A stretch of 63,961 nt of DNA, counting the filler, from a bacterium (GTDB taxonomy: Bacteria > UBA9089 > CG2-30-40-21 > SBAY01), in NCBI GenBank assembly GCA_040757115.1. It is 5 parts of 5 records of this genome, joined end to end, with 100 filler letters (N's around TTAATTAATTAA, not from the genome) between each part and the next. Parts side by side here need not be neighbours in the genome. Positions count along the whole stretch, not along the records: positions 1 to 13,568 come from JBFLYA010000103.1; positions 13,669 to 27,219 come from JBFLYA010000104.1; positions 27,320 to 40,862 come from JBFLYA010000105.1; positions 40,963 to 54,443 come from JBFLYA010000106.1; positions 54,544 to 63,961 come from JBFLYA010000146.1. One strand, given 5' to 3'. Positions 2,436-63,961 of the stretch are shown piece by piece (position 1 is the first letter of the stretch; the number at the start of each line of letters is the position of its first letter). The position numbers and the translations under genes were made by a program. The notes below the pieces were generated by a model that was not told the origin of the DNA, searched no databases, and was given only the letters and a program-made list of their open reading frames with translations.

Positions 2436-2679
2436 GTAACCGTTCACCGCACAGACACAGAGACGCAGAGAAAAAATTAAAAACTATTTACCAGACGCAG
2501 GATTCCATCACGGATTTTCATCAGTGCAATCTTTTGAGGACCGACATCTCATGATTGATTAACAATTGGGTTTTGATGTCCTATGTATTCCAATGATTGC
2601 CTCAATAATCTTTTCTGTTATCTGATTTATTTCTCTGTTCCTCTGCGTCTCTGCGGTAAATTACCACCTGAACGCTTAC
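2436..2679. mobile_element. Family A MITE-like element (GTAACCGTTCA...TGAACGCTTAC) with an internally deleted GxxExxY remnant on the minus strand
   Basis: Terminal inverted repeats; inverted CGCAGAGA(C)-type arms; minus-strand EINQITEKIIEAIIGIHRT and DGILRLVNSF-stop; no clear TSD. Confidence 0.8.
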
Positions 2680-2701
2680 AAAGAATCAGAATGGGACGAA
2701 A

Positions 2702-3430
2702 ATGCATCTTTTTGATGATTTAATAAATTTTATCTTTCCATCTAAATGTAGAACTTGTGGTAAATTGCTTCCAACTTTAGCAGAAAAATATATCTGTAAT
2801 GAATGTTTCTCAAAGATAAACAGGGTCAGTCCTCCTTATTGTGATAAGTGCGGAAAGATGTTAGTCGAGTCATTTAACGAGATTGAAAAACCCCTATGTG
2901 AAGAATGCCAGATTCACAAAAGACACTTTTTTAAAGCACGAATAATGGGTGTTTATGAAGGTATTTTACGAGAGAGTATTCATATATTTAAGTTTGAAAA
3001 GAAGATATGTATGCAAAAGCCACTAAGCGAATTACTGGTTAATTATCTTAAAGAACAACAAGGAGATTTAATTAGCCAGATTGACTTTATCATCCCGGTG
3101 CCATTACATCGAAAAAGATTTAGAGTGCGTGGGTTTAATCAGGCACAACTGTTAGCCTTTCATATTGGCAGGTATTTTAATCTACCATTAAATCTTGACC
3201 TGAAACGAATTAGATTTACCACGCCGCAGATGAATCTGGAAAGGGAACAGCGGATACAAAACATAAAAGGTGCATTTGCGGTAAAAAATCAGCATATAAT
3301 TACGGACAAACATCTATTATTAGTCGATGATATTTTCACCACCGGAGCAACTGTAAATGAATGCAGTAAAGTGCTTATGAAAGCAGGAGCAAAACAGGTC
3401 TTTGTCTTAACATTAGCCAGGGGAAGATAA
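2702..3430 (+). CDS. comF: ComF family double-zinc-ribbon / phosphoribosyltransferase protein
   Basis: N-terminal CxxC pairs, IIPVPLH, RGFNQA, LLVDDIFTTGATVNECSKVL. Confidence 0.93.
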   Translation: MHLFDDLINFIFPSKCRTCGKLLPTLAEKYICNECFSKINRVSPPYCDKCGKMLVESFNEIEKPLCEECQIHKRHFFKARIMGVYEGILRESIHIFKFEKKICMQKPLSELLVNYLKEQQGDLISQIDFIIPVPLHRKRFRVRGFNQAQLLAFHIGRYFNLPLNLDLKRIRFTTPQMNLEREQRIQNIKGAFAVKNQHIITDKHLLLVDDIFTTGATVNECSKVLMKAGAKQVFVLTLARGR

Positions 3431-3500
3431 TCACTGGTGGTCCACTTTAGTTTGAAAAGGGGTAAGCATTCAGATAACAGAGAGCAGTGGACAGAAATTT

Positions 3501-3936
3501 GTAAGCATTCAGGTGGTGTAACAAAAGGAGATGTGGAGATTAAGGAGATAGGGAGATTTATTAGAAATTAGTAGAAACTAATAGAAATTTATGGAAATTT
3601 GGGTGGTGTCTGAAAATAACGCTAAGAGTGAAATCTATGCAGATTTGGTGTAAAAAAGGGGATAAGGAGATAAAAGGAGATATGGAGATTATTCATTGTA
3701 ATTTGCAAAATTTTAGAATGAATTTATCTCCTAATCTCCATAATCCCCATATCTCCTTTTCGGACACTATTTCAACCTTTATGCTAGATTGAGACACCAC
3801 CGAAATTTGTTGTTTTCCACAATCAATTTCTACCTATTTCTATAAATTTCAATCTATTTCTATTATCTTATCTCCATATCACCCTTATCTCCTTATCCCC
3901 TTTCTTACACTTTTGATATATAGCCTGAACGGTTAC
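3501..3936. mobile_element. Family A MITE-like element with GGAGATA-type arms, containing a nested family B element
   Basis: GTAAGCATTCAGG...CCTGAACGGTTAC flanked by 8-bp direct repeat AGAAATTT; its halves recur at 13669-13801 and 40539-40600. Confidence 0.9.
3602..3801. mobile_element. Family B MITE-like element (GGTGGTGTCT...AGACACCACC)
   Basis: 10-bp TIR, 8-bp TSD GAAATTTG; near-identical inverted copy at 10652-10851. Confidence 0.92.
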
Positions 3937-4012
3937 AGAAATTTGACCTCTTCCCCTGTTAAGTTTTTAATAATCTATGTCGATATTAATTAAAGGAGGT
4001 GAATAAAGAAAG

Positions 4013-4408
4013 ATGGCCGCAGTTACTCCTTTAGTAACTCAAGTTGATTTCCTAAAATTATTAGTTACTCAACTCGAATACCAAAATCCATTGGACCCAC
4101 TAGATAATGCAGAGTTCCTTGGTCAAATGGCAGAATTCTCTAATTTACAACAATTGATTAGTTTGAACGAAAATTTCAGTGAATTGACTACTAATTTCGC
4201 ATCCCTTAATAGTTCTATGCTAAAAACTCAAGCATTATCCCTCCTTAATACAGTAGTAAATTTTACAGACCCGGTAAACGGTGAGATTTTCACAGGCATG
4301 GTATATCAGGTAAAATTTATCGAGGGGATTCCGAAATTAACTGTTATTCACGACCAGGGAACATCCGAAATAGGACTTGATAATATCATTAGTGTTATGG
4401 TTCGGTAA
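4013..4408 (+). CDS. flgD: Flagellar hook capping protein FlgD (short form)
   Basis: DFLKLLVTQLEYQNPLDPLDNAEFLGQMAEFSNLQQL. Confidence 0.93.
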   Translation: MAAVTPLVTQVDFLKLLVTQLEYQNPLDPLDNAEFLGQMAEFSNLQQLISLNENFSELTTNFASLNSSMLKTQALSLLNTVVNFTDPVNGEIFTGMVYQVKFIEGIPKLTVIHDQGTSEIGLDNIISVMVR

Positions 4409-4433
4409 AACTGATATTGAAAGGAAATAAAGA

Positions 4434-4757
4434 ATGGAACCATTAGACATAGAGGTTAATTTAGCTCAACAGGCAGAAGTAGGTAGAATGCAACAAGCCG
4501 GGATATACCAGATAAATGCCTGGCAAGAACAAATAGCAGGTAAACTGGAATTAGAGGCTGAAACTTCTCAAACATCAGTTCAAACCACTCAATTATCAGA
4601 AGAAGAACAAATTGAAAAAAGAAAAGGTGACCGTAACAAAAATCCATACTGGTGGAAAAAACAGTACCAGTATAAACAAATAAATAATATTCATCTTGAA
4701 GAGATACAACCAATTCCTCATCCAATCAAAGGTAGATTCATTGATGTCTTTAGATAA
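4434..4757 (+). CDS. Hypothetical protein, possibly flagellum-associated
   Basis: Follows flgD; Gln/Glu-rich; C-terminal HPIKGRFIDV motif. Confidence 0.55.
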   Translation: MEPLDIEVNLAQQAEVGRMQQAGIYQINAWQEQIAGKLELEAETSQTSVQTTQLSEEEQIEKRKGDRNKNPYWWKKQYQYKQINNIHLEEIQPIPHPIKGRFIDVFR

Positions 4758-4794
4758 AGGTAGCCCTTCAGATACGACGGCACAAGAAATGTGC

Positions 4795-5168
4795 GTATGT
4801 GTTTAGCGTGTTCTGAATGATGCTAATTTAAGGCGTAACTCTTTGGTAAATAATAAGATGCCGATGTAAAATATTCCACGAAGAGCTTAATGCAAATATC
4901 AAAATGTAAAAAGCAAAATGACAAAGCAAAATGCAAAAATACTTGTAAGGCAATAAAAAAAATCAAATATTAAAAATCAAAAATAAGAATAAAAGAATTC
5001 CTTAATTTTGATATTTGCTCTTTGATTTTTGATATGATATTTGATATGTCATTTTGCATTTTAATATTTAATTTTTGATTTTGTATTACACAACTTGTTG
5101 TGTTTGAAGTGGTTTCGCACTAAGTCAGTACCATTCATTTGTGCTCTCTGACCACGCTAAACAGGTAC
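4795..5168. mobile_element. Family D MITE-like element (GTA.GTGTTTAGCGTG...CACGCTAAACAGGTAC) with AAATATC/AAAATG(C/T) heptamer arms
   Basis: TIRs; flanking near-direct repeat GAAAT(G/A)TGC; close copy at 17249-17567 and partial inverted copy at about 27520-27700. Confidence 0.88.
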
Positions 5169-5217
5169 GAAATATGCCTCCGTATCTTAGTGAGGCGAAT
5201 AGTTACGAAGGAGGAAG

Positions 5218-6552: not shown

Positions 6553-8580
6553 ATGAGTAATATTAAACGCTTGTCTATTCCTAATTCTATCCTTATACTA
6601 ACTCTTATTATCTGGTTTGGTTTGGTGGCAATAAATTACTATAAACATCACCCTTCGCTCTATCAGACACTTACGGGCTTAATTGAAATCTCGAGTGTCT
6701 TGTTCTTTCTTATCTTCATTTTACTTACTGCATTTCTTGGTGGGCATACTCTTTTCAATCTTTTTAAAATCGAGATTAAAGGATTAGAAAAATTCCTGTT
6801 TTCTATGGGGCTTGGGTTTGGGGTATTAATGTATTTAACCTTTTTTTTAGCCACGGCTGGGTTATTATATACTCAAGCGGTCTGTGGGGTAATGATAGCC
6901 ATTATCTTTTTGAGTATTAAAGATTTAAAAAAACTCATCCCTCAGAAACAGAAAAAGAAACCTAATCTTTCCCAAAAGACAAAAAATTATTCTTTACTTG
7001 ATTTAAGTTTAGCCGTTATTTTGTGTCTTACTATTCTTGGGGTTTTAATTAGCACATTGACACCTCATATCTCCTGGGATTGTGCGGTTTATCATTTGAA
7101 TGTTCCAAAATTCTATCTAAAAGAACATAGATTTATCCCAATTCTTCATATTGTTGCCTCTAATATGCCTTTCAATATCGAGATGCTTTATACCATAGCC
7201 CTTTCTTTGAAAAATCCTGTTGTGGCTAAACTCATCCATTTCTCATTCGGGATTTTAACCCTGTTATGTATCTATTCTTTTTGTAAAAGATACTTCAATC
7301 AACAGATAGGTCTATGGTCAATGGTAATTTTTTATCTAAATCCTGTGACACTTTTTGTGGCTAACATTTCCTATATAGATTTAGCGGTAACTTATTATTT
7401 TCTCCTGGCCTGCTATGATTTTTTTCTATGGTCAGACCCGATGAATCAGGATGCGAAAAAGGGACGATGGTTAATTTTAATGGCGATATTTTGTGGAATT
7501 ATGATGGGCGCAAAATATACCGCCGTCTTTGGTACATTTATTCTTGGTGCTGGGATTTTTATAAAACTCTTTTTTTCAGAGCAGGTTAATTTTTTTAAAA
7601 TATCAAAGCAAACCTTACTTTTTGCTTTTATCTCCTCTCTCTTTGTTATCCCCTGGCTTATCAAGAGTTATCTATTTACTGGCAATCCTGTTTATCCAGC
7701 GGCTTATAATCTATTTGGCGGAATTAACTGGGATAAGGAACTTGCTGACCAATTTGCAAAGTGGCAGTTTGGTAAAATGGGTAAAAAAGAGATATTATCA
7801 TATCTCCTACTTCCCTGGCAAATGACTATTCATGGAAATTATGGACAGATATTTGATGGTATTTTGAGTCCACTCTATTTAATTTTTATCCCTTTTCTTA
7901 TCTTCCTTAAGGAAAGAAATAAGGTCATAATCTATTTATTATGTTATTCTATGTCCTTTTTTATATTATGGAGTCTTTCTATTCAAATTTTGAGGTATCT
8001 GTTGCCTATTGTGCCGCTGTGGAGCATTATTGTAAGTTATGTGATAGATGCCGTTTCACACAAAGGCAAAATTCATAAGATAGCTATCTGGACGCCGACA
8101 TTGATTATCCTCCTTTCCATTCAACTTCCTCATCTTTTTCAGTATTCGACTGATGTTTTGGCCGCGGTCGGGTTAGAAAGTAAAGATGCTTACATCAGCC
8201 GAACATTTCCTCCATATAAGGTATTTAAGTATATAAATGAGAAACTAAGTGACCGTGCAAAAATCCTTTGTTTATGGGAAAATCGTGGGTTTTATTGTGA
8301 GCGGGAATACTTAGCGGATAGTTTCTTCGAGGCATCTCATATGTTAAAAATGATTCGAAAATGTGGGAGTGCACCACAACTATTAGAAGAGTTAAGAAAA
8401 CAAGGAATTACACATATCCTTATAAATAAACAATTAGCCGCAATCTTTTATGACAAAAAAGGTGTAGAAATAAAGATAATTGAGGAATTTCTCGGTAGAT
8501 ATTGTCATCTTCTCTATTCGGAAAATGATGTGGATTTGTATGAGATAACTGTTCAGCCACTAATTAGCACGGATAAATAA
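6553..8580 (+). CDS. GT-C (ArnT/PMT-like) membrane glycosyltransferase
   Basis: Polytopic; WDCAVYHLNVPK, YIDL, TGNPVYP, RYLLP; the last codons lie in a family A element end. Confidence 0.8.
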   Translation: MSNIKRLSIPNSILILTLIIWFGLVAINYYKHHPSLYQTLTGLIEISSVLFFLIFILLTAFLGGHTLFNLFKIEIKGLEKFLFSMGLGFGVLMYLTFFLATAGLLYTQAVCGVMIAIIFLSIKDLKKLIPQKQKKKPNLSQKTKNYSLLDLSLAVILCLTILGVLISTLTPHISWDCAVYHLNVPKFYLKEHRFIPILHIVASNMPFNIEMLYTIALSLKNPVVAKLIHFSFGILTLLCIYSFCKRYFNQQIGLWSMVIFYLNPVTLFVANISYIDLAVTYYFLLACYDFFLWSDPMNQDAKKGRWLILMAIFCGIMMGAKYTAVFGTFILGAGIFIKLFFSEQVNFFKISKQTLLFAFISSLFVIPWLIKSYLFTGNPVYPAAYNLFGGINWDKELADQFAKWQFGKMGKKEILSYLLLPWQMTIHGNYGQIFDGILSPLYLIFIPFLIFLKERNKVIIYLLCYSMSFFILWSLSIQILRYLLPIVPLWSIIVSYVIDAVSHKGKIHKIAIWTPTLIILLSIQLPHLFQYSTDVLAAVGLESKDAYISRTFPPYKVFKYINEKLSDRAKILCLWENRGFYCEREYLADSFFEASHMLKMIRKCGSAPQLLEELRKQGITHILINKQLAAIFYDKKGVEIKIIEEFLGRYCHLLYSENDVDLYEITVQPLISTDK

Positions 8581-8601
8581 TAGAGGAGAGACGGCACGGT
8601 G

Positions 8602-8798
8602 CTAGGGTCGTGTTGAGTAAGTTTTGCACGGGGTATCATCAGATTTCATAACCTGCAAACGGATAATTAGTAACTGGTAACTGGTAATTGGTTAAATAGT
8701 TTCGTCCTGAGCTCAGCCGAACGGTATTTAATTACCAGTTACCAATCACCAGTTACCAGAATCAAATTCCGTGCGTTATTTGTTCAACATGACACTAG
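8602..8798. mobile_element. CTAG-bounded MITE-like element with inverted GGTAACT heptamer arms
   Basis: CTAGGGTCGTGTTGA...TCAACATGACACTAG; CTAG at both ends, as with IS5-like targets; partial inverted copy at about 53073-53195. Confidence 0.8.
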
Positions 8799-8899
8799 AA
8801 ACTTCATCATTCTACATTCAGTATTCTACATTCGATATTCAATATTATTCCTGTTACCTAAACGATTACGATATTTTTAAAAAATTCTCGGTCAGCCTC

Positions 8900-8929
8900 T
8901 TGACAAAATGGAAAGAATTGTTTTATACT
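8900..8929 (+). promoter_or_regulatory. Sigma70-type promoter upstream of the histidine kinase
   Basis: TTGACA-N18-TATACT. Confidence 0.55.
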
Positions 8930-8964
8930 TAAATTGAACATTGGAATTGATAATGACTATATTT

Positions 8965-9273
8965 GTAAGCGTTCAGGTGTAAGTAGCACAAGTAATTATT
9001 TTTTATTCACTGCAATTCAGACACTGGACATCAGACACAAGACTATAGACTCTATTTATGCAGGGAATTAGGTAAACGTTCAGCTACTTAAAAAAATAAC
9101 TGTAAAATGTAAAATGAGCAATTAAAAATTTAAAAGTCAATTCTGTGTTCTGGCAGTAAGAATTGATTTCCCAATCATCTTGCATTTCATCTATCCTCTC
9201 ATTTTACATTTTTCATTTTACATTGCCCATTTTACATTATTATTAGATATTTTGTAATGACCTGAACGCTTAC
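8965..9273. mobile_element. Family A MITE-like element with AAAATGT heptamer arms
   Basis: Perfect 15-bp TIR GTAAGCGTTCAGGT../..ACCTGAACGCTTAC core; 8-bp TSD CTATATTT. Confidence 0.92.
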
Positions 9274-9323
9274 CTATATTTGAAACCAATTATTGATAAC
9301 CGATTACCGACAACTAATAAAAG

Positions 9324-10622
9324 ATGGAATGTATAAAAATGCAAGTAAAAAAAGACAATACTAATCAAATAATTACAAGTCTGAGACTTCAGATAATTAT
9401 AGGAATAATAAATGCTATTTTTATAAATATAGCCATTAATCTCCTCATGCCGAAGGTTTGGCCCAATTTTCCTGTGGTAGAAGTTTGCATTTTAGTTGGG
9501 CTTTTACCTATTCTTGCTTTAATAGACTTAGCCCTTTTTGTCAAATTCAAACAACTTATCCTCAATCTGCTATGGATTTTGGTCATCGATGGCATTATCC
9601 TCACTACAATCCTCTATTTAATTGGTGAGATGAGATATTTATTTGTCTTCATCTATCTTATGCCCATTATGATGAGTGCCCCTATCTTTCCGCTAAGGCG
9701 TCTTATCATCCTCCCAATCGTTTATTCTCTCTTCTTTACCACCATGGTCTTTTTAGAGTATCTGGGAATGATTCAGATTATCGATACGCCTCATCTTGAG
9801 ATTACCATCTTCTATATTTTGCTGGTCTCAACCGTAACCATAATCCTTATTCATGCCATAACGATAATTATAGGAAGAACTATGGATAAAATAAATGAAA
9901 GGGATTGGCAGTTAAGATTGACCTATAAGGAACTGCAGGATTCACAGGATAAACTTGTTAAGGTAGAGAAACTTGCAGCGGTTTCTCAGATTGCCGCTGA
10001 GGCCGCTCATGAGGTAAAAAATCCATTACAGGTCATAAAATCAGGATTATACTATCTGAAAATAACTCACAAAGAGGATATTGATGCCCAGCAGACTATC
10101 CAGCAGATGGATAGTGCCGTAGGAAGGGCAACCGGGTTTATCAATGACCTGCTGAATTTCTCAAAGCCACTTGAGTTGAAAACGACTAAGTGCCAGGTGA
10201 ATAAATTAATCAAGGAGGCAATAAAGGAACTCCCTGAAGAACTTCTTTCTAATATCGATGTAACGCAAAACTTAGCCAGTGACCTGCCGGAGATTAATGT
10301 GGATTCTGACCGCATTCGTCAGGTGCTGGTTAATCTGGTGAAGAATGCGGCTGAGGCGATGGGAGGAGTTAAGAGTAAAAAGTTAAAAGTAAAAAGTGAA
10401 AGAGGGGGAGATTTTATCAAGATAGGCATCTCGGATACGGGCAAAGGCATAACCACAGAGGATATAAGCAAGATATTCGAGCCATTTTATACCACCAGAG
10501 GCAAAGGAATAGGTCTGGGGCTGGCTATCTGCCAGCGATTAATTGAGGCACACCAGGGCAGGATAGAGGTAGACAGTGAAGTTGGAAAGGGAACAACATT
10601 TGTGGTATTCCTGCCAATTTAG
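9324..10622 (+). CDS. Membrane-bound sensor histidine kinase (HisKA + HATPase_c)
   Basis: AAHEVKNPL H-box, QVLVNLVKNAAEAM N-box, DTGKGI, FEPFYTT, GIGLGLAI. Confidence 0.93.
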   Translation: MECIKMQVKKDNTNQIITSLRLQIIIGIINAIFINIAINLLMPKVWPNFPVVEVCILVGLLPILALIDLALFVKFKQLILNLLWILVIDGIILTTILYLIGEMRYLFVFIYLMPIMMSAPIFPLRRLIILPIVYSLFFTTMVFLEYLGMIQIIDTPHLEITIFYILLVSTVTIILIHAITIIIGRTMDKINERDWQLRLTYKELQDSQDKLVKVEKLAAVSQIAAEAAHEVKNPLQVIKSGLYYLKITHKEDIDAQQTIQQMDSAVGRATGFINDLLNFSKPLELKTTKCQVNKLIKEAIKELPEELLSNIDVTQNLASDLPEINVDSDRIRQVLVNLVKNAAEAMGGVKSKKLKVKSERGGDFIKIGISDTGKGITTEDISKIFEPFYTTRGKGIGLGLAICQRLIEAHQGRIEVDSEVGKGTTFVVFLPI

Positions 10623-10628
10623 AGAAAT

Positions 10629-10872
10629 GAAGCCTCTCGGATAAAAAATTCGGTGGTGTCTTAATCTAGCATAAAGGTTGAAATAGTGTCCGAAAAGGAG
10701 ATATGGGGATTATGGAGATAAGGAGATAAATTCATTCTAAAATTTTGCAAATTACAATGAATAATCTCCATATCTCCCTTTATCTCCTTATCCTCTTTTG
10801 GACACCAAATCTGCATAGATTTCACTATTAGCGTTATTTTCAGACACCACCCAAATTTATCTGAGAGCGTTC
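10629..10872. mobile_element. Family C element (GAAGCCTCTCGGATAAA...TTTATCTGAGAGCGTTC) enclosing a family B copy at 10652-10851
   Basis: Imperfect 17-bp TIR whose ends recur at 34590 and 56941; the interior is the inverse of 3602-3801. Confidence 0.8.
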
Positions 10873-10904
10873 TAAAAAATAAAGGGGGTTTTGAATCTTT
10901 TACT

Positions 10905-11885: not shown

Positions 11886-12574
11886 GAAAGATTGGTCCTC
11901 TAAATTATCTGGTTATGCCTGCTTTTGAATCCGTCCTGCAGGGCGTAACAACTAAAGAGATAGGAGAATTTAACTCGGATAACCCTGAAAAAATAAAAAC
12001 CAGACTAAACGAGCTTTTTGGGATTAATCAAATAGCCTGGACAACACAACTTCACGGTGATGAAATTTATGTCATTGGGGAAAATAATTTTAATCAATTT
12101 GGAACCCAAGAGGCAGATGGTTTAATTACCAATATCCCGGGAATTTGCCTGACGATTAGAATTGCAGATTGCCTGCCAATATTTATTTTAGATAAAAAAA
12201 ATAAGGCGATTGGTTTAGTCCATGCAGGCTGGCGAGGAACGGTGAAATGTATTGTTCAAAAGGCAATACTTAAAATGATAACGCTTTATGGCTCTTCGCC
12301 AGAAGATTTCATAGTTGGATTTGGCCCTTCAATTGGTGTCTGCTGTTATAAAGTCGGGAATGATGTGACGGAATTAATCAAGGATAAAGATTTAGTCAAG
12401 GATGGCTATTTAAACCTGCAAAAGGCAAATAAAAAACAATTGCTTGAACTGGGTATTAATAATATTATTCTCAACCAATATTGCACTTATGATGAGCGTG
12501 ATTTATTCTTTTCTCATCGAAGAGGGGATAAGGGGAGGATGATAGCGTTTTTGCAGATGGGAGTGATGGAGTGA
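11864..12574 (+). CDS. pgeF: PgeF/YfiH family polyphenol oxidase / purine nucleoside phosphorylase
   Basis: [34 protein letters not shown]...FFSHR. Confidence 0.9.
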
Positions 12575-14534: not shown

Positions 14535-14775
14535 GTAACCGTTCACTTAATCCTTTACCGCAGAGACGCAAGAGTTCGCAGAGAGGAAAATATCTTTTTT
14601 TTCGTGTTTTTCGCTGTTTAAAAAGGCTTAAAAACAGTTAGTTAAAAGTAAGTATTAAAAGATTAATAAACAACGAAAGACCCGAAATGCACAAAAAAAA
14701 GAAATTTCTGTCTCTGGTGAATAGATTTTAATTTTTTTCTCTGCGTCTTTGTGGCATCTTGCGGTGAACGGTTAC
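14535..14775. mobile_element. Family A element with CGCAGAGA and CACGAAA arms
   Basis: GTAACCGTTCAC...GTGAACGGTTAC; inverted near-copy at 34713-34951. Confidence 0.88.
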
Positions 14776-16585: not shown

Positions 16586-16908
16586 GTAACTATTCACCAC
16601 GAAGAGCACGAAGGACACGAAATGGAATTTAAGGTCTTGTAATTTTCGGTAGTGTCTGACAATAACTACAATTCTTTTAACCACAAAGATCACAAAGAGT
16701 TTCACAAAAGAGTCAAAGATTTTTGAGAGAATAAATTTTTCCCTTTATTTCTTTGTGTATTCTTTGTGTACTTTGTGGTTAATTTCAGAGACCATCTAAT
16801 TTTCTTCGTGTTCTTCGTGGTGAATAGTTACGCGCATCCAATGACTCTATTCGATAATTCATCAAATTTCACTTCGTGCTCTCCGTGCCCTTCGTGGTGA
16901 ATAGTTAC
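16586..16908. mobile_element. Family A cluster (GTAACTATTCACCACGAAG...) with nested B-like element 16648-16796 and a GxxExxY 5-prime remnant
   Basis: TIR ends at 16831 and 16908; nested GGTAGTGTCTGA...TCAGAGACCATC with TSD TAATTTTC; minus-strand (M)KFDELSNRVIGCA at about 16832-16872. Confidence 0.85.
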
Positions 16909-16920: not shown

Positions 16921-17118
16921 TCAATCTTCATTTCCAAACATCCCCATCTTTTTCCGATATTCTATAATTCTTGAAATTATTGTCTCAATATTTTCTTTCA
17001 CGATATATTTGGTTCCGGAGATAAGGGTTATCGTGGTATCAGGGTTAGCTTCCATATTTTCGATTTGATGTGGGTTAAGAAAAAATTCACGACCATTAAG
17101 TCGAGTTAGTTTAATCAT
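16921..17118 (-). CDS. flbD: Flagellar protein FlbD
   Basis: MIKLTRLNGREFFLNPHQIENMEANPDTTITLISGTKYIVKE. Confidence 0.95.
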   Translation of the reverse strand: MIKLTRLNGREFFLNPHQIENMEANPDTTITLISGTKYIVKENIETIISRIIEYRKKMGMFGNED

Positions 17119-17248: not shown

Positions 17249-17567
17249 GTACGTGTTTAGCGTGTTCCAAATTGCGTTGATTTGAGACTTAACTCTTTGT
17301 TAAACAATAGGATACCGGTGCGAAATATTCCACAAGGAGTTTAATGCAAATATCAAACTGTAAAAATCAAAATGACAAAGCAAAATGCAAAAATACTTGT
17401 AAGGCAATAAATTAAACACGAAGTCAAGATTTTTGATATTTGATATGTCATTTTGCATTTTAATATCTAATTTTTGATTTTGTATTACACAACTTGTTGT
17501 GTTTGAAGTAGTTTCGCACTCAGTCAGTACCATTCATTTGTGCTCTCTGACCACGCTAAACAGGTAC
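17249..17567. mobile_element. Family D MITE-like element
   Basis: Copy of 4795-5168 with a shorter core; flanked by direct repeat GTGACTC. Confidence 0.88.
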
Positions 17568-48174: not shown

Positions 48175-48207
48175 TTAATATGTCTCCCTTACAGATTATG
48201 TAACTAC

Positions 48208-48348: not shown

Positions 48349-48418
48349 GTAACTATTTAGCCATCTGAAGTGAAATAACAGGCAATGGTTGTTAGGTTCA
48401 GGGTTCTACTGTCTTACT

Positions 48419-50272
48419 TCACCTGGGTAAATAATTAACCAGATTATTTATTAACAGCTGTTTTATCTTATAGCAGTCACTAACTTTCTGCCTTGGTCTT
48501 TTAAAGATACTATCTACTATTTTTCTATCTCCACCATTTCTTCGGATTATCTCTACGATGTATTCATAAGTTTGTAGCTCTGTGCGAAGGACTTTTAGTC
48601 GTAGAGATGGAATAGGAATATCGAGATTAAATTTACTACCAGGATAAAAGGCTAATGCAGTGCCATCTTCGTCATCAAGGTAGATATAAGGGTCATCTTT
48701 CCATGAGGCACAACTCCAGAAGCAAATTCCATCAACTTTTGCTTTCCATATTTCCCATAATATATCTATTTCTTTATCATCTTCATTATCACAAAAAGAT
48801 TTTTTATTTACCGCGGGCAGACTTCCATAAAACCAGATTTCTTCATCCTGCCTATGTCTATTTTCCGCATCAGAAATATCACTCCCCAGTCCAACATTCC
48901 ATAATCCAACATAGCCATCTAATCTTTTATCTGAGGAAAGATACTCATAATACCGACCAATATCAATTCTAAAAACAAACTTTGCAGATTTAGTATCCAT
49001 AATTTTCTTTCCCGCACCTATATTTTTAAATCCTTTTCTTGTTAATTCTGCATAGTATTTCAACGCATCATAATCAGCATAGGGATTTTGGGGAGATTCC
49101 TTAGATGGGTATCTCGGTTCATCCATCCGCCAGGGAATTAATTTAGACATAGTTGTTTTATGGTTAAAATATATCTGAAATTGGGTTTGTGTCCAACCCT
49201 GTTTATTAAAATAATCTTCAAATTGTTGACATATTCTTATATATTCTGTTCTGTATTCTGGAGTCGTATATCGTCTTGAATTTTTATCTTCGCCCCATTT
49301 TGCAGGCCAATTACAATTAAATGGCAATATAAAAGATGATAATGCTCTGCCGGTCCCTCGCTTACATTCATAAAAAATATTATCTTTGGGTGAGAAGTAT
49401 TTATTAAACTGATTATAAAATGCCCTCCAATCCACTACCTTAATTTTATCCCCATTACCTTCAATAATGGGGGCATAATTCCCCTTCATTCCACCATCTT
49501 GATTATAGGGTATTTCACTAAGGGTAAATCCATGTTCCCGTGCCATTTTATGAAATTTCTCTTCAATGCTTATGTATCGTGCGTCTTTACGGTCAACATC
49601 AAATCCTCTTGATATCCAGATATAATCATTTAAAATAGCCTTTAATGAATAATCATCCGGAAGGGCAAAATTTAATACCTTAAGTTTAATATTTAGTGTT
49701 TTAAGTAATTTTTTAGTCTGGGTAACCTTAAGAGTCCCTTGATAATCACCAGCAGGAATATTTTTAGGTATGTAAATATCACACCAGACAGCCTGGTTTT
49801 TTTGTCCGATAATAGGTTGGGTAGAAGTAGGAATATCAAATGGGGCACCATAGTCAGGGACTTCAAAAGGTATTAATGCATCCGGATACCATACATTATT
49901 TAGTTTTATATACCACTCACGAAATAGTTCAATATTCTCTTTGCTTTGAATAACTCCCTGTCCTGTTAAATTACTGACTAAAATATCTACATCCTTAAGT
50001 TTTGTATTCTCTGCCTCAATAACTACTTGAAATCCTACATATTCATTCTTTGCCCCCTGAAGGGAAATAGTATTAAGGTTTTTATCAAAGAAGTAATTTT
50101 TGTCTTTATATTCGCCAATTATTGGTTTAGCGTTATATTTTCGCGGGTCTTCCTCATATACATTTCCAGTGATAGGATTGACCTTTTCATATTCTCCTGT
50201 TACCCAGATATTAACTGAAGAAAACGCCGGAGAAGAAGACAATAGAATCAGTAATAATATGATAATTTCCAT
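48419..50272 (-). CDS. Secreted DUF4091 / GH123-like putative glycoside hydrolase
   Basis: Signal peptide; GAKNEYVGFQVVI, WYPDALIP, NQAVWCDIYIP, YQGTL, MDEP, FYPG...PIPSLRLKVLR. Confidence 0.72.
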   Translation of the reverse strand: MEIIILLLILLSSSPAFSSVNIWVTGEYEKVNPITGNVYEEDPRKYNAKPIIGEYKDKNYFFDKNLNTISLQGAKNEYVGFQVVIEAENTKLKDVDILVSNLTGQGVIQSKENIELFREWYIKLNNVWYPDALIPFEVPDYGAPFDIPTSTQPIIGQKNQAVWCDIYIPKNIPAGDYQGTLKVTQTKKLLKTLNIKLKVLNFALPDDYSLKAILNDYIWISRGFDVDRKDARYISIEEKFHKMAREHGFTLSEIPYNQDGGMKGNYAPIIEGNGDKIKVVDWRAFYNQFNKYFSPKDNIFYECKRGTGRALSSFILPFNCNWPAKWGEDKNSRRYTTPEYRTEYIRICQQFEDYFNKQGWTQTQFQIYFNHKTTMSKLIPWRMDEPRYPSKESPQNPYADYDALKYYAELTRKGFKNIGAGKKIMDTKSAKFVFRIDIGRYYEYLSSDKRLDGYVGLWNVGLGSDISDAENRHRQDEEIWFYGSLPAVNKKSFCDNEDDKEIDILWEIWKAKVDGICFWSCASWKDDPYIYLDDEDGTALAFYPGSKFNLDIPIPSLRLKVLRTELQTYEYIVEIIRRNGGDRKIVDSIFKRPRQKVSDCYKIKQLLINNLVNYLPR

Positions 50273-50322: not shown

Positions 50323-50615
50323 GGGTGCGTGTAAAATTTATGGGTAAAAAATATTCTGAGAGTTAGACCTGAAATTAAATCAAATATCAAAATGCAAAAT
50401 TACAAATCAAATTTCAAAGAGGAAATAGCAGGGTTTCTCTCAAAGAGTTGGAGGAATTTGGTAATATCTTTGCTTCAAGTATTTTAACGCTGAAAGGAAA
50501 GAGATAATTTTACATTTTGATATGTAATTTTTATATTTGCTTTTTGCATTTTGCTCTTTGGAGGGAATTGAATAATAGAGATGTTAAAAGTTACCCACAA
50601 ATTTTACATACACCC
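50323..50615. mobile_element. Family E MITE-like element (GGGTGCGTGTAAAATTT...AAATTTTACATACACCC) with a four-helix-bundle remnant
   Basis: About 25-bp TIR, 8-bp TSD TTGACAAC; MQNYKSNFKE then, out of frame, LKELEEFGNIFASSILTLKGKR-stop. Confidence 0.93.
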
Positions 50616-52798: not shown

Positions 52799-53219
52799 CT
52801 ATGCATTCATTCACAATTCACCATTCACAATTCACCATTGTTTCCCTTTCCCATTTTTTCCTCTTTTCCCCTTTTTCCTTATGGACACTTGAACAGTTAC
52901 AAAAAAAAGATATTTTCCTCTCTGTTCCTCTGCGTCTCTGCGGTAAATTACCACCTGAACGGTTACCGGGAAAAGGTTATTTACTTTTATTACAGTCACC
53001 CTCAATTCATTTTCCTTGACATTTTGATTTAATTGTGATAAAATATCTCCAGTGCAATTAGAATTAATCTCCTGTCGTGTTGAACAAATAATGCAGGGAA
53101 TTTGATTCTGGTAACTGGTGATTGGTAACTGGTAATTAAATACCGTTTGGCTGATTTCAGGACGAAACTATTTAACCAGTTACCAGTTACCAATTCTGAT
53201 AACAGAGGTCGAAAAATCT

Positions 53220-53575
53220 GGTGGTGTCTTAATCTAGCATAAAGGTTAAAATAGTGTATAGGGTTCTGCAAAATAGGATTTGAGGGAGACAACAAATAAA
53301 TATCAAATATCAAATATTAAATATCAAATATAAATATCAAAATGCAAAATTACAAATCAAATTTCAAAGAGGGAGTAACAAGGTTTCTCAAAGAGTTGGA
53401 GGAATTTGGTAATATCTTTGCTTCAAGTATTTTAACGCTGAAAGGAAAGAGATAATTTTACATTTTGATATGTAATTTTTATATTTGCTTTTTGCATTTT
53501 GCTCTTTGGAGGAAATCCCTTTTGGACACCAAATCTGCATAGATTTCACTATTAGAGTTATTTTCAGACACCACC
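53220..53575. mobile_element. Family B element with a four-helix-bundle mini-ORF core
   Basis: Same termini as 10652-10851, TSD AAAAATCT; the core matches the core of family E element 50323-50615. Confidence 0.92.
53342..53455 (+). pseudogene. In-frame internally deleted four-helix-bundle gene (37 aa)
   Basis: MQNYKSNFKEGVTRFLKELEEFGNIFASSILTLKGKR-stop; the ends resemble IVP-family termini. Confidence 0.7.
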
Positions 53576-54082: not shown

Positions 54083-54376
54083 GTAACCGTTCACCGCAGA
54101 GACACACAGACGCAGAGAAGAAAATTAAAATTTATGGACGATACGCTTAACATCCCTGATTTTCATCAGTGCAAGCTCTTGAGTCCAACAACATTAAACT
54201 TGCCCTGATGAAAATCAGGGATGGATTAACAAATCTGGCTTGCCGGCTGAACATTCGGCAAGCAGGTCCTATGTATTTCAATGGCTGCACCAATAATCTT
54301 TTCTGTTATCTGATTCATTTCCATATCTTCTCTGTTCCTCTGCGTCTCTGCGGTAAATTACCACCTGAACGGTTAC
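54083..54376. mobile_element. Family A element with a GxxExxY remnant and nested 73-bp hairpin (54151-54223)
   Basis: TIR; 8-bp TSD GGGTAGTC containing the ilvN stop; minus-strand MEMNQITEKIIGAAIEIHRT and KRIVHKF-stop. Confidence 0.93.
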
Positions 54377-56088: not shown

Positions 56089-56517
56089 GTAACTATTCAC
56101 CACGAAGAGCACGAAGGACATAAAGATGTTACAGAACAAATCCCTTTATGCCTTCTTTTAATCTTTCCACATTGAAATTTATCAATAGACCAACCTTGAT
56201 ATTTGCCAATTTCATATATGGTAATGGGTCAGTGAAATGGGGGATTCTCCTGAAAGTAGGAAGTAGGAGAGTAGGAAAGTAGGAAAGGGGGAGACATTGC
56301 CCCCAGAAGAGGAATACCGTGCACATCCTTTATCCCTTTCCTACTTACCTACTACCTACTTGCCTACTATTTTCATTGCTTTGTCCTCCGCAGGTTAATG
56401 TTCATTTCCCCAAATAACTGATTTATTACCATATATGTCAATATTTGAGCTTCATGAATTCGATAATTCATCAAATTTCACTTCGTGCTCTCCGTGCCCT
56501 TCGTGGTGAATAGTTAC
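56089..56517. mobile_element. Family A element with GxxExxY ends and GTAGGAA/TTCCTAC arms
   Basis: TIR; near-TSD AATTT(G/T)AG; minus-strand YMKLANIKVGLLINFNVERLKEGIKGFVL-stop and KFDELSN. Confidence 0.88.
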
Positions 56518-56713: not shown

Positions 56714-56897
56714 CCACCTGTGCGATTAGACTAATTCATCGCAGAGACGCAAAGGAAAAATAAATGTAAAATGTAAAATAGGAAATGAAAAATGGGAAAT
56801 TTTAGGACTTCGCAAGACTCATTACCTTTCAGTTATACATTTTCATTTTACATTTCTCATTTTGCATTATCCATTTTACATTTAACCGCACAGGTCG
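56714..56897. mobile_element. Family F element (C(C/G)ACCTGTGCG TIR) with AAAATGT arms
   Basis: CCACCTGTGCGATT...AACCGCACAGGTCG; 8-bp TSD AAAATTTG. Confidence 0.88.
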
Positions 56898-58999: not shown

Positions 59000-59015
59000 T
59001 AGGGTTTCACGAAAG

Positions 59016-59256
59016 GTAACTATTCAGCCACTGATTAACACGGATTAGCACGGATAAATACAGAGGTCAGAAGATAGAAGGCAGAGAGCAGAAGGCAGAG
59101 GGCAGAGGAGAAAGGGGGAAACAGGAGAAACGGAGAAAGGGAGAAATCTGTGTCCTCTGCGGTAAAATCTTGCGAAAATCTGTGTAATCTGCGGATTATT
59201 TTCAGGTCACGAATTTTCAGTGTTTCATCCGTGTCCATCTGTGGCTGAATAGTTAC
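59016..59256. mobile_element. Family A element between convergent sppA and pcrA
   Basis: Perfect 16-bp TIR GTAACTATTCAGCCAC; CACGGAT and GCAGAAG repeats inside; no TSD seen. Confidence 0.85.
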
Positions 59257-59265
59257 TTTACTTTT

Positions 59266-61161: not shown

Positions 61162-61176
61162 GAAAACTGTGTATTA

Positions 61177-61581
61177 GGGTGTATGTAAAATTTGTGGGTA
61201 ACTTTTAACACCTCTATTTTTATCAATTTCCTCCAAAGAGCAAAATGCAAAACTCGTTTATAGTTTATAGTTTATAGTTTATGGTTTATAGTTTATGGTT
61301 TATGGTTTATAGTTTATGGTTTATGGTTTATAGTTTATAGTTTATGGTTTATAGTTTATAGTTTATGGTTTATAGTTTATAGTTTATGGTTTATAGTTTA
61401 TGGTTTATAGTCCTTCAACTATAAACTATCAACTATAAACTATCAACTATCTACTACATTTCAGCGTTAAAATACTTGAAGTCCTTTTTGAAATTTGATT
61501 TGTAATTTTGCATTTTGATATTTGATTTAATTTCAGGTCTAACTCTCAGAATATTTTTACCCATAAATTTTACACGCACCC
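61177..61581. mobile_element. Family E element (inverted) containing a 22-unit heptamer array
   Basis: Same termini as 50323-50615; 8-bp TSD GTGTATTA. Confidence 0.93.
61257..61410 (+). repeat. 22 x TTTAT(A/G)G tandem array
   Basis: 154 bp counted as 22 seven-base units. Confidence 0.97.
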
Positions 61582-61608
61582 GTGTATTAGGTTCTTTGCA
61601 AATAGCGG

Positions 61609-61637
61609 TTGACAAAATGCCTTAAATCACATATAAT
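61609..61637 (+). promoter_or_regulatory. Perfect consensus sigma70 promoter
   Basis: TTGACA-N17-TATAAT, 10 nt before ATG 61648. Confidence 0.85.
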
Positions 61638-61647
61638 TATCTATGGT

Positions 61648-63564
61648 ATGGAACAACATAAGGTTATCTTTTATCCAGGTGGAGAAATAGGTAATGCGGC
61701 TGATGGTGAGAGTTTGCTTCGTGTGGCGGCGGCGGCTGGGCTTTATATTACCGCCTCTTGCGGTGGAAATCACACCTGTGGGAAATGCAAGGTTATCATT
61801 GAATCAGGCACAATCGAAGGCGGAATATCAGAAAAACTCACGGCTGAAGAAATAAAAAAGGGCTACAGATTAGCCTGTGTTTCTAAGATAAAGAGTAACC
61901 TAACTGTCCGAATTCCGGCAGAATCCCAATTTTCAGATAAACGCTTGCTGGAAGAATCTGTTTCAAAACGACTCCTTATCCCGGAATCCCTGAAAGACAT
62001 AAGACCAGATTATAAACTCGACCCCCTATTGAATAAATACTATCTTGAATTACCCCCACCAACTAAAGAGGATAATATCGATGATTTCTCCCGTGTTAAA
62101 AGAGCAATTAAGTCAACATATAAAGATTGTTCAATTAACCTTTTTTCTTTAAACAAACTGCCACAGACCTTGAGAGAATCAAACTTTAAGATTACTCTAA
62201 CCTTACTTGAAGAGGAGAAAAATAAACCAAAGATAGTAAATATCGAAGAGGGGAATACACAGGATAGACATTTTGCCCTTGCCATTGATGTTGGGACAAC
62301 CTCAATTTATGTTCGATTAATTAACCTTTCGTCAGGAGAGATTCTCGCCACGGTCTCAGACTACAATGCTCAGATTGGCTACGGAGAAGATGTGATTACG
62401 CGGATAGTGTATTCGTTAAAGGGTGATGGGCTTAAAATATTGCAAGAGGCGGTGGTCAAAACCATAGAATTACTCATCACTCAAATACTTAACGAGAAAA
62501 ATATCACCCGCCAGGAAATATCCTATCTTGTTGCCGCAGGAAATACGACAATGGTGCATTTATTAGCCGGAATTACACCTAAATATCTGCGTGAGGCACC
62601 TTATGTTCCGGTAACAAATTCATCTATTGAGATTCAAGCCTCCAAAATTGGGCTTGAATTTCCTGAATATGTCCATCTTTATATTTTGCCCGGAGTGGCA
62701 AGTTATGTTGGTGGGGATATTACCGCCGGTGTGCTTGGAACAGGGCTTTTTCAATCTGATGAATTAACCCTGTTCATAGATATTGGCACTAATGGTGAGG
62801 TAGTTCTGGGAAATAAAGATTGGTTAATCACAACCTCATGTTCAGCCGGACCTGCCTTTGAAGGAGGCACAATAAAACATGGAATGCGAGCAACCATTGG
62901 CGCTATCGAGCAGGTAGAAATAGGTAATGATTATGAACCAATGCTTATTACGATTGGTCATAAATCTCCAAAGGGAATATGTGGTGCAGGATTGATTAGT
63001 TTAGTCGCCGAGTTATTGGAGACGGGAATAATATCTCAAAAGGGTAAGTTTAATACCAATATCGATACCCCACGAATTAGAACGACGCAGGGGATAAAGG
63101 AATATGTTCTTTGTTACGCAGACCAGACTGACATCGCCAGCGATATAGTTATTACCGAACCTGACATTGATGACCTTATTCGTGCCAAAGGCGCTATGTA
63201 TGCTGGTATTTGCACATTACTTAATAGTGTCCGTCTTAGTATTATGGATATTTCTAAGATAATCGTTGCGGGGAATCTGGGATTTCACCTTGAGATAGAA
63301 AAGGCAATTACAATCGGTCTTTTACCAGAGGTCTCATCTTCAAAATTTATATTTATCGGAAATGGCTCTTTACCTGGAACAACACTTTGTGCCCTATCAA
63401 AAGAGATGTTCGAGCAGGTAAAACAGATTGCTAATTCAATGACAAATATTGAGCTTTCAGATAATTCTGAATTTATGAATGAATACATCGCCGCCCTTTT
63501 TCTACCTCATACCGAAGAAAAAAGATTCCCAAATATATTTAAAATGCTCTCTTCGTTGAACTAA
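61648..63564 (+). CDS. RACo/AcsV-type reductive activator of corrinoid proteins (2Fe-2S + ASKHA)
   Basis: CGGNHTCGKC...RLAC ferredoxin; DVGTT, YGEDVITRI, GNTTM, YVGGDI, DIGTNGE, SAGPAFEG, GICGAG, GNGSL. Confidence 0.93.
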   Translation: MEQHKVIFYPGGEIGNAADGESLLRVAAAAGLYITASCGGNHTCGKCKVIIESGTIEGGISEKLTAEEIKKGYRLACVSKIKSNLTVRIPAESQFSDKRLLEESVSKRLLIPESLKDIRPDYKLDPLLNKYYLELPPPTKEDNIDDFSRVKRAIKSTYKDCSINLFSLNKLPQTLRESNFKITLTLLEEEKNKPKIVNIEEGNTQDRHFALAIDVGTTSIYVRLINLSSGEILATVSDYNAQIGYGEDVITRIVYSLKGDGLKILQEAVVKTIELLITQILNEKNITRQEISYLVAAGNTTMVHLLAGITPKYLREAPYVPVTNSSIEIQASKIGLEFPEYVHLYILPGVASYVGGDITAGVLGTGLFQSDELTLFIDIGTNGEVVLGNKDWLITTSCSAGPAFEGGTIKHGMRATIGAIEQVEIGNDYEPMLITIGHKSPKGICGAGLISLVAELLETGIISQKGKFNTNIDTPRIRTTQGIKEYVLCYADQTDIASDIVITEPDIDDLIRAKGAMYAGICTLLNSVRLSIMDISKIIVAGNLGFHLEIEKAITIGLLPEVSSSKFIFIGNGSLPGTTLCALSKEMFEQVKQIANSMTNIELSDNSEFMNEYIAALFLPHTEEKRFPNIFKMLSSLN

Positions 63565-63791
63565 CATTCCCGGTAACACTTTAGCCGTCTGAAGGTGTAA
63601 ATAATGGAAAATGGGTAACCGTTCACCGCACAGACGCAGAGAAAAAAATTGTTGACAAAATTTGAAGTTAAATGGTATTCTATTAAAGAGATAAAATTGT
63701 TACCACAAAAACACAGTAGGGTAGCGTTCTCTAATTGAAGGTAACCGTTCATGGATATAGCCACGAATGAACACGAATAATAAAAAGATTT

Positions 63792-63814
63792 GTAGTGCGA
63801 GGCTTTAGCCTCGC
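63792..63814 (+). repeat. REP-like unit inside a family A element that starts at 63741
   Basis: GTAG followed by hairpin GCGAGGC-TTTA-GCCTCGC. Confidence 0.75.
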
Positions 63815-63961
63815 TTCTGGCAAGCAGGAAAGCAAACCTAATTGCTTTTTCATAAATAGGTTCCTCTTTTGGGGAGAGCGATAGCAAGAAGAACTTTAAT
63901 GTAAATATCAAAATGCAAATATCAAAATTACAATGCAAAATGCAAAAATACTTGTAAATTA

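Follow-up and report, generated by a model that had tools for sequence, protein, structure and literature searches.

Small hairpin-armed elements bounded by terminal repeats in bacterial spacer DNA, and the gene-bearing units from which many of them may derive

The nearest known counterparts of the DNA described here are transposable elements of the miniature inverted-repeat type (MITEs), mobile insertion cassettes and the 23S rRNA intervening sequences (IVSs) that carry an open reading frame (ORF). A mobile insertion cassette is a unit bounded by terminal inverted repeats (TIRs) that holds a passenger gene, has no transposase and is flanked by a target duplication. In the REPIN-RAYT system, a single-copy gene lies between inverted copies of a short repeat, and hairpin doublets of this repeat are scattered over the genome; every gene clade has a repeat of its own, the gene encodes a transposase of the Y1 HUH type, and target duplications are not known. 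Intergenic heptamer arrays also exist in cyanobacteria, as the STRR repeats. Here we analyse a window of 63,961 nucleotides, made of five records from the assembly of a groundwater bacterium (GCA_040757115.1) joined end to end, in which the spacers between genes hold small TIR-bounded elements with arms of inverted short repeats. Some of these elements contain the ends of genes from one of two families, GxxExxY and a four-helix-bundle family. We think it likely, from sequence comparison, that the spacers are saturated with MITEs that were moved in trans, and that many of them are deletion derivatives of armed gene units.

As far as the available text of PMC4990558 goes, the Coxiella IVS is the closest published architecture: its S23p ORF is preceded by tandem GACAGAT heptamers whose number varies between strains, its stem is cut by RNase III, and the ORF decays by internal deletion. 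An older proposal, recounted in the same text, holds that IVSs are mobile elements. Tandem heptamers are also described as TAACTGA arrays in Beggiatoaceae, cyanobacteria and Bacteroidetes; these are direct repeats (169 sets, with one indirect repeat) that have been given a regulatory reading, and their patchy spread across phyla suggests transfer (PMC4679880). In the accessible part of that paper, a term search turned up neither MITEs and nucleases nor S23 and four-helix proteins. The two gene families at issue, GxxExxY (PF13366) and the 23S-IVS/four-helix-bundle family (PF05635), are common small proteins without an assigned role. In the excerpt available of a 2012 survey, PF13366 is a table row marked 'Unknown', with multiple transfers between divisions (PMC3424549). 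The term 'GxxExxY' is rare in the literature searched and never stands in a title or abstract there, and the passage at hand uses it as incidental annotation.

Ends, interiors and intact units

A scan of the window for recurring ends delineated 22 TIR-bounded elements of 141-436 bp, with no transposase gene inside, and set apart six end families with traces of others. The commonest family, T1, ends in GTAA[GC][CT][GA]TTCA and accounts for 38 ends in the window; T2 ends in GGTGGTGTCT, T3 in GGGTGYRTGTAAAATTT, T4 in CSACCTGTGCG, T5 in GTAYSTGTTTAGCGTG and T6 in CTTATC[CG]TTACCCAC. T5 is additional to the families named in an earlier note on this DNA, and is represented by two elements with 8-9 bp duplications that contain one mismatch (4795-5168, and 17249-17567 with AGTGACTC / GGTGACTC). 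Exact 8-bp target duplications flank 10 of the 22 elements, and 14 have duplications with at most one mismatch, whereas none of 682 pairs passed at either threshold when the flanks were moved outward by 9-39 bp. The nine elements for which the earlier note had claimed exact 8-bp flanking repeats all have them, adjoining the TIRs, and its three one-mismatch cases (40612-40840, 48208-48348 and 56089-56517) were found as well. The second of these needs qualification: the GTTTATA-armed element at 48208-48348 does have one-mismatch repeats (GTAACTAC / GTAACTAT), but it is nested in a T1-like mini-element, and it is this larger insertion, at 48200-48439 (240 bp, duplication CAGATTAT), that the sister genome lacks.

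All genome-wide counts were taken from the nearest genome, G001 (4.7 Mb in 770 contigs, 96-99% identical to the window over syntenic genes), which we used as a sister strain. G001 contains 1,435 T1 ends (724 forward and 711 reverse) against 0 + 1 for the reversed pattern, and 56 T2 ends against 0 in the control; T1 ends were also present in 12 of 12 relatives searched, at 29-817 each. Five elements of the window are missing at the orthologous sites in G001, each of which keeps one copy of the target. These are the T1 mini-element at 3501-3936 (ends GTAAGCATTCAGG / GTAACCGTTCAGG, arms AAGGAGAT and TTAATAGAAA, duplication AGAAATTT), together with the T2 mini-element nested in it at 3602-3801 (GGTGGTGTCT ends, AAGGAGAT arms, duplication GAAATTTG); the T5 mini-element at 4795-5168 (GTAYSTGTTTAGCGTG ends, GCAAAAT-type arms); the T1-like element at 48200-48439; the T3 mini-element at 50323-50615 (GGGTGYRTGTAAAATTT ends, a GCAAAAT-armed core, duplication TTGACAAC); and the T3 mini-element at 61177-61581, which has about 24 GTTTATA/G units with an inverted CTATMAA array (duplication GTGTATTA). 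An uninterrupted copy of the element that hosts 3602-3801 lies elsewhere in G001, at C159. The elements have thus been mobile since these two near-identical strains diverged. The proposal of the earlier note that the TIR shells are real ends of non-autonomous transposons is borne out by the fixed 8-bp duplications, the high copy number and the single-target empty sites. Contigs from three public groundwater metagenome runs yielded no further clean empty site, and no joint that skips exactly one element; in these runs the summed depth of repeat bins was far above that of unique bins, though such depths are not copy numbers.

The T1 ends and their 8-bp duplications fit the published description of IS66, whose inverted repeats of 20-30 bp start with GTAAGCG and which gives 8-bp direct repeats, as stated in the text available from PMC11946415. 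In the window, GTAAGCGTTCAGG, with a GTAAGCG-type start, stands at 8965, 9273, 2679 and 40539, and GTAACCG and GTAACTA variants occur elsewhere. Among the 24 genomes that make up our sample of the phylum, three strong DDE_Tnp_IS66 loci were found, and two of the three are compact elements bounded by T1-type ends. The first is a 1,505-bp element with GTAACCGTTCACA at both ends and a DDE_Tnp_IS66 ORF of 468 amino acids (G007 L202 1339-2843); the second is a 1,737-bp IS66-family element with GTAACTACTCAGG ends (G008 L201 485-2221). Judged by its ends and its 8-bp duplication, the T1 shell appears to belong with the IS66 family. A search for relatives of the partial IS66-family protein of G001 in public contigs gave one uninformative match. 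ISL3 was tried as a partner for the T3 ends and rejected, as the two decayed ISL3 remnants in G001 have no T2, T3 or T4 motifs nearby.

What lies between the ends is of a different kind. The interiors are filled by tandem 7-10-mers in inverted pairs, among them the inverted 7-9-mer arrays on which the earlier note had remarked, and they are not transposase remnants, as it had also held: 0 of 145 spacer ORF pieces of at least 40 amino acids match a transposase family in Pfam. Hidden Markov models (HMMs) built from ten GxxExxY and nine four-helix-bundle genes of G001 were run on the six-frame translation of the window. They recovered GxxExxY C-terminal ends at 56132-56329 (-) and 45419-45493 (-), N-terminal ends at 40637-40906 (-) and 54229-54357 (-), and weaker pieces at 2562-2660 (-) and 56376-56477 (-); the GxxExxY genes of the window are fragments only. 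Pfam independently assigns 56132-56329 to PF13366 and 38083-38307 to PF05635. Gene ends, said at first to be frequent in the interiors, are thus real but confined to roughly 6-8 of about 26 elements, and four-helix-bundle ends to one locus. Both C-terminal remnants lie in T1 mini-elements with CACGAAG arms, one at 56089-56517 (-) with the duplication AATTTGAG / AATTTTAG and one at 45376-45643 without a duplication. N-terminal codons recur in a run of three abutting T1-type pieces: 40460-40538 has the opening codons of GxxExxY together with a T1 end and a CGCAGAG arm, the left end of the AAGGAGAT family occupies 40539-40611, and 40612-40840 has ATTCACA and CACGAAG arms, a GxxExxY N-terminal remnant and the duplication AAAAATTG / AAAAATAG.

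Two interiors match intact gene units, which identifies them as internal-deletion copies. An intact 464-bp GxxExxY unit of G001 (L089/L090) is matched at both of its ends, with 94-97% identity, by the T1 mini-element at 54083-54376 (-), which has the duplication GGGTAGTC and from which the gene's middle part alone is missing. The cassette remnant at 37954-38378 (-), with AAATTCC / TTTGGAA arms, keeps the first 6 and the last ~70 codons of a four-helix-bundle gene whose intact relative is G001 C701 4400-5041; it is absent from the orthologous spacer of G001. Clean ends and a duplication were sought for this remnant, and a T6-like end was found alongside it on one side only, with no convincing duplication. 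Several interiors derive by internal deletion from units of 450-650 bp in which an intact GxxExxY (PF13366) or four-helix-bundle (PF05635) gene stands between inverted arrays of 7-9-mers.

Intact versions of both kinds of gene, with their arms, are present in G001; the earlier note had proposed a search for such full-length loci. In this genome TIGR04256 has 108 matches, 17 of them full-length and many of the others restricted to profile positions 1-25 or 81-116, and TIGR02436 has 40, 19 of them near full length. All 19 intact G001 genes that were extracted have inverted arrays of a short unit on both sides, often touching the start and stop codons. The arm unit varies from gene to gene; in G001, examples are CGCAGAGA, CACGAAGNN, CACAGATNN, CGCAAAG and ACAGGATNN for GxxExxY genes, and GTCGTAA, GTTTAGT, GAGTTTAG, AAATTCC and GTTGATA for four-helix-bundle genes. 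When flanks of 100 bp were scored by local inverted-repeat alignment, a score of at least 30 was reached by 8/10 GxxExxY and 7/9 four-helix-bundle genes of G001 and by 13/27 GxxExxY genes from 17 other genomes, against 0/32 neighbouring ORFs, whose maximum was 26. For the entire L089 unit, the predicted fold is one that its own ends and arms close by pairing (z = -5.9), and the gene-less 3602-3801 is predicted to fold as one long hairpin (z = -6.2).

The cargo of the intact units is under selection. The L089 protein matches PF13366 with E = 2.6e-45, and the four-helix-bundle proteins belong to PF05635. Residues E27, Y30, E37, D67, E77 and K79 are invariant in 37/37 GxxExxY genes, and D67, E77 and K79 form a D...ExK core. 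Synonymous differences exceed non-synonymous ones in three within-clade comparisons of L089, with L090 (11:2), L122 (37:22) and L121 (42:22), and are about equal to them in the more distant pair L091 and L089 (49:47). Two intact units have both TIRs and a target duplication: L096, a TIR-bounded unit of 563 bp with an intact GxxExxY gene and no transposase (duplication AAATGGGA), and C701 4400-5041, a T6-bounded unit of 642 bp with an intact four-helix-bundle gene (duplication CCTCTATCC).

Related genes and elements extend well beyond G001. GxxExxY genes (E <= 1e-20) occur in 18 of 30 related genomes, with 32 matches in G001 and 1-5 in each of the other 17. The exact junction of a T1 end with a CGCAGAG arm was found at 20 loci of public contigs, in metagenome-assembled genomes (MAGs) labelled as five or more phyla, with hosts labelled Pyrinomonadaceae, Syntrophobacteraceae, Chloroflexi, Latescibacterota, Planctomycetota and others. 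Several of these loci are complete elements of 160-300 bp with exact 8-bp duplications, and one Syntrophobacteraceae locus has a frameshifted GxxExxY gene between T1-CGCAGAG ends.

Nesting and the competing explanations

The earlier note had suggested that cores are not tied to a single TIR family, and the same arms, cores and genes indeed occur in several shells. Arms of AAGGAGAT are found in a T1 element (3501-3936) and in T2 elements (3602-3801, 10652-10851 and copies in G001). A GCAAAAT-armed core of ~170 bp is 93% identical between the T3 element at 50323 and the T2 shell at 53220-53575 (duplication AAAAATCT), and around twelve loci of G001 contain it too, within T2, T3 or one more kind of shell. 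Within the T6 shell, C701 has an intact four-helix-bundle gene and L092 an intact GxxExxY gene, both with the same polarity. GxxExxY genes with T1 ends on their flanks include L089, L090 and L096, and the four-helix-bundle gene of L106 has such an end on one side. Elements are also nested. The T2 copy of the shared core, 53220-53575, retains one end of another TIR family (TAGGGTTCTGCAAAA); the GTTTATA sub-core has its own ends and its own duplication; the T1 element at 16586-16831 (CACGAAG arms) hosts a T2-like element at 16648-16796 (duplication TAATTTTC); and a three-deep nest in G001 (L176) still has the duplication of its T1 insertion intact (AAATACTT). A core with a foreign TIR end, a sub-core with its own boundaries and the nest at L176 weaken the case for a separate exchange mechanism, and the first two indicate that some apparent cassette exchange is ordinary nesting. 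Nested insertion with later deletion or recombination is enough to account for the mosaics that we examined. Of the two layers proposed at the outset, TIR shells that carry repeat-armed cassettes are supported; cassettes that move or are exchanged as units by a mechanism of their own are not. Every insertion polymorphism that could be resolved is bounded by TIRs and a target duplication.

From these observations we infer the enzyme that would move each family, the role of the arms and the route by which cores reassort. The spacers would hold non-autonomous elements of cut-and-paste type from at least six terminal-repeat families, inserted by transposases acting in trans with an 8-bp (occasionally 9-bp) target duplication. 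For T1, the mover would be an IS66-family DDE enzyme, so that a transposase from an element with GTAACCGTTCA ends would act on T1 mini-elements. Gene-bearing units would be moved by DDE transposases, and so would the deletion derivatives of these units. The source units, at 450-650 bp, would resemble mobile insertion cassettes whose sole cargo is a GxxExxY PD-(D/E)XK nuclease or a 23S-IVS/Avd-like four-helix-bundle protein, with the inverted arrays of 7-9 bases pairing into a stem that closes around the gene. The gene-plus-arms unit would be an older, cross-phylum cassette, built like the ORF-bearing rRNA intervening sequences, that rides in transposon shells in this lineage, where its gene-less hairpin derivatives would have risen to hundreds of copies. 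Shells, arms and cargo would have been shuffled by nested insertion, by deletion and by recombination between arms that resemble each other. The arms themselves would be long subterminal inverted repeats inherited from the IVS-like cassette; they would make the unit self-fold, and they probably promote internal deletion and recombination between units that share them.

Several observations weigh against this account. Eight of the 22 window elements lack a target duplication, and the window contains no transposase. The IS66-family gene of G001 is split over contig ends, and the contig start, GTAATTGTTTACC, resembles T1 without being identical to it; neither of the intact IS66-type elements (G007, G008) has a clean duplication. 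The matching of TIRs to transposases, which the earlier note had put forward, succeeded for T1, with intact IS66-family elements in two related genomes, but not for T2-T6, for which ISL3 was the only other family tried. Only 9/46 intact genes have a T1-like end within 260 bp, with an exact duplication only at L096, so that the account does not extend to the spread of most intact cassettes; the gene with its arms is thus the more general object, to which the shell has been added. Finally, the core shared by T2 and T3 elements stops at the outer edge of its arms, as exchange at the level of the cassette would also give.

A second explanation, which we consider unlikely, is that the armed cassette is a mobile layer of its own, an IVS-type hairpin cassette whose own product, nuclease or helix-bundle protein, recognises its cognate arms, with TIR shells serving only as landing pads and vehicles. 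Such a cassette would insert into sites that form hairpins, or swap between them, for example at the centres of MITEs, in the loops of terminators and in rRNA helices. This would account for the same core in different shells with boundaries at the arm edges, for the two gene families both turning up in T1 and in T6 shells with an unchanged polarity towards the shell ends, and for the 37/46 intact cassettes that have arms and no T1-like end. The catalytic residues of the nuclease, invariant in 37/37 genes, are in keeping with this explanation, and classical IVSs, in the published accounts at hand, have the same ORF family and tandem heptamers at the tips of 23S rRNA helices. The arm motif also follows the protein clade across genera and families (CGCAGAG, CGCAAAG, CACAGAT, ACAGGAT), a pairing that the earlier note had suggested; however, co-inheritance of a gene with its flanks suffices to produce it without any recognition. 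No polymorphism bounded by arms alone was resolved, and the five empty sites and the two duplicated intact units are all TIR-bounded. One 'core' proved to have ends of another TIR family, and one sub-core its own TIR and duplication. Moreover, the intact cassettes are low-copy and diverse, and only gene-less, TIR-bounded derivatives were amplified. In its boldest form, the proposal makes the gene-plus-arms unit a distinct class of mobile element, in which the nuclease or helix-bundle protein acts on the arms, hairpin loops are the targets and shells are repeatedly colonised vehicles. We regard this, too, as improbable; if it is true, two large families of orphan proteins would gain a function, and there would be an explanation of how rRNA intervening sequences and the dispersed heptamer arrays arose.

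It is far less probable still that the arms are host RNA or DNA signals, such as RNase III sites, transcript stabilisers or terminators, with a kinship to intergenic heptamer arrays, that the genes are resident host genes, and that their association with transposon ends is incidental, since MITEs would gather near hairpins. RNase III excises the Coxiella IVS at its stem, according to the available text of PMC4990558, one T5 element does sit in a hairpin loop, and free TGGTAAC arrays upstream of ribosome-binding sites vary in unit number much like TAACTGA arrays. Yet the T1-end/CGCAGAG-arm junction recurs with target duplications in MAGs of five or more phyla, and gene remnants lie inside amplified TIR-bounded elements. 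The 108 GxxExxY matches in G001, mostly fragments, against 0-5 strong matches in each of 29 other genomes, point to a proliferating element rather than a resident gene.

The notion that chance or assembly error created the elements, with low-complexity AT-rich spacers yielding spurious inverted and flanking repeats, draws on the composition of the window (35% G+C, rich in short tandem repeats) and on the 770 contigs of the sister assembly, and is refuted by the shifted flanks (0/682), the reversed patterns (0-1 against 1,435 T1 ends, 0 against 56 T2 ends), the precise empty sites in independent assemblies and the related copies in other phyla.

Remaining elements and their surroundings

The other elements of the window add variants of the same types. 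T1 mini-elements without a duplication lie at 2436-2679 (CGCAGAG-type arms, with the weak GxxExxY N-terminal remnant 2562-2660 on the minus strand; also present in G001), 14535-14775 and 34713-34951 (both with CGCAGAG arms). The family of 2436-2679 has ~25 related copies in G001 among the matches listed (40 of 767 candidates were scored). A further T1 mini-element, at 8965-9273, has the canonical IS66-type end GTAAGCGTTCAGG and the duplication CTATATTT. The T2 mini-element at 10652-10851 is 200 bp long and has AAGGAGAT arms and no target duplication, and 56714-56897 is a T4 mini-element with CSACCTGTGCG ends and the duplication AAAATTTG. Half elements occur at 16832-16908, which abuts 16586-16831 and combines a T1 end with arms and the initial codons of GxxExxY, and at 52901-52966, a T1 end with a CGCAGAG arm. 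Near the end of the window, at 63615-63961, further T1 ends (63615, 63741) stand with GCAAAAT arrays in a region that continues past the window. At 59016-59256 there is a T1 mini-element with CACGGAT / CACAGAT arms and no duplication, and the sequence at the G001 site is unrelated: opposite 59005-59257, G001 (C767 4120-4525) holds a different element, with GTCGTGTTGA-type ends and TGGTAAC arms, and a short heptamer array. This site has been re-used, or its element replaced, between the window and G001.

Hairpins and heptamer arrays are also found outside the TIR-bounded elements. The T5 element at 4795-5168 occupies the loop of a hairpin with a perfect 11-bp stem (4780-5185; AGATACGAAGG ... 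CCTTCGTATCT); the hairpin is intact in G001, lies just downstream of the ORF at 4434-4757 and is probably a terminator. Free-standing TGGTAAC / GTTACCA arrays lie at 37910-37936, 8670-8759 and 53109-53192, as well as in G001 (C249, C390). They stand directly upstream of ribosome-binding sites, and the same site has 4 units in the window and ~20 in G001; another TGGTAAC-type array, which separates the genes at 46729-46764, is confined to G001. The TGGTAAC unit is one base off the published TAACTGA repeat. A perfect 142-bp tandem duplication in the spacer at 22689-22975 contains TAGTGAAT arrays and a GGGGGTT motif. An Rfam search of the window gave no family above threshold. In the 23S rRNA gene of G001 (L219/L220; contigs C83 and C77) there are three group I intron matches and expansions of ~70-77 nt at two helices, and a search of these two contigs for PF05635/TIGR02436 found no match.

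DNA outside the ORFs taken as genes amounts to ~15.1 kb, or 24% of the window, and roughly half of this spacer DNA is element or repeat material, an estimate in which several element boundaries are approximate. Element-rich spacers matter for annotation and assembly, since they break short-read assemblies: the breaks of G001, which is in 770 contigs, fall exactly at these repeats. The ZapB-like gene at 434-691 (+) and the FlbD gene at 16924-17118 (-) are genuine small genes in apparent spacer, and are to be excluded from the repeat material. The remaining gene products include flagellar, pilus, exopolysaccharide and corrinoid-pathway proteins, and the nearest relatives of the QueA protein are in MAGs labelled Nitrospira sp. 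or Nitrospirota (68-76% identity). Some products are unusually large for flagellar components, namely a FlgE-like hook protein of 1,495 amino acids (17670-22157) and a FliK-like protein of 1,373 amino acids with 11 copies of a 249-bp tandem repeat (23073-27194). The protein encoded at 40907-45133 (1,408 amino acids; CBM60, dockerin-like and Pre-toxin TG domains; three 222-bp tandem repeats) is probably a surface protein of the polymorphic-toxin type. Two differences from the syntenic contig C90 of G001 concern the genes themselves: the LIC_10190-like membrane protein, a histidine kinase and their spacer (6553-10876) are replaced there by ~180 bp, and the PgeF-like gene has ~66 extra bases (window 12101-12110, C90 13226-13298), an in-gene indel and not a TIR element.

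Comparison with known systems

The window and G001 give the PF13366 and PF05635 genes a concrete setting, as the sole cargo of tiny hairpin-armed units within IS66-type and other transposon ends, and in this lineage such gene-bearing units appear to have spawned hundreds of gene-less copies. This raises testable ideas about the moving enzyme, about the purpose of the arms, and about whether rRNA intervening sequences might be elements of this kind that landed elsewhere. Neither the armed cassette nor its IS66-type shells were found described in a body of literature from which subscription journals were largely absent; among the matches listed, the T1-end string occurred only in unrelated primers and the CGCAGAG-arm string did not occur.

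With MITEs and mobile insertion cassettes, the elements share TIRs, a fixed 8-bp duplication, small size, the lack of a transposase, many copies, nesting and empty sites. For T1, the likeness to MITEs of the IS66 family extends to the GTAAGCG and GTAACCG starts and to the intact IS66-family elements that two related genomes have with matching ends, and both L096 and C701 4400-5041 answer to the definition of a mobile insertion cassette. The difference lies in the cargo, which here always comes from one of two small orphan gene families and has inverted 7-9-mer arrays around it; several unrelated shells also hold cargo of the same types.

The 23S rRNA IVSs of Coxiella and Leptospira (S23p / PF05635), in the accounts available, share the PF05635 ORF within an inverted-repeat stem, the tandem heptamers next to the start codon and an ORF prone to internal deletion. 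In contrast to them, all window copies lie between protein genes and not in rRNA helices, some units carry a PD-(D/E)XK gene instead, and part of the units have transposon ends with target duplications, features that the available text of PMC4990558 does not report for IVSs. The TAACTGA arrays, as described in the accessible part of PMC4679880, are likewise tandem 7-mers in spacers, often upstream of start codons, and the window has free TGGTAAC arrays of this kind; there the repeats are direct, whereas here inverted arrays frame genes. Ac/Ds-type families also combine short TIRs with subterminal repeats, and some of their non-autonomous members are internal deletions, according to the excerpt available of PMC3260210; they are, however, eukaryotic hAT elements in which the long element encodes a transposase, whereas the cargo here is not a transposase. 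REPIN-RAYT offers a parallel in its gene between inverted copies of the dispersed repeat and in the match of gene clade and repeat. Unlike REPIN-RAYT, the dispersed copies described here keep gene ends and TIRs, and the gene encodes a PD-(D/E)XK or helix-bundle protein.

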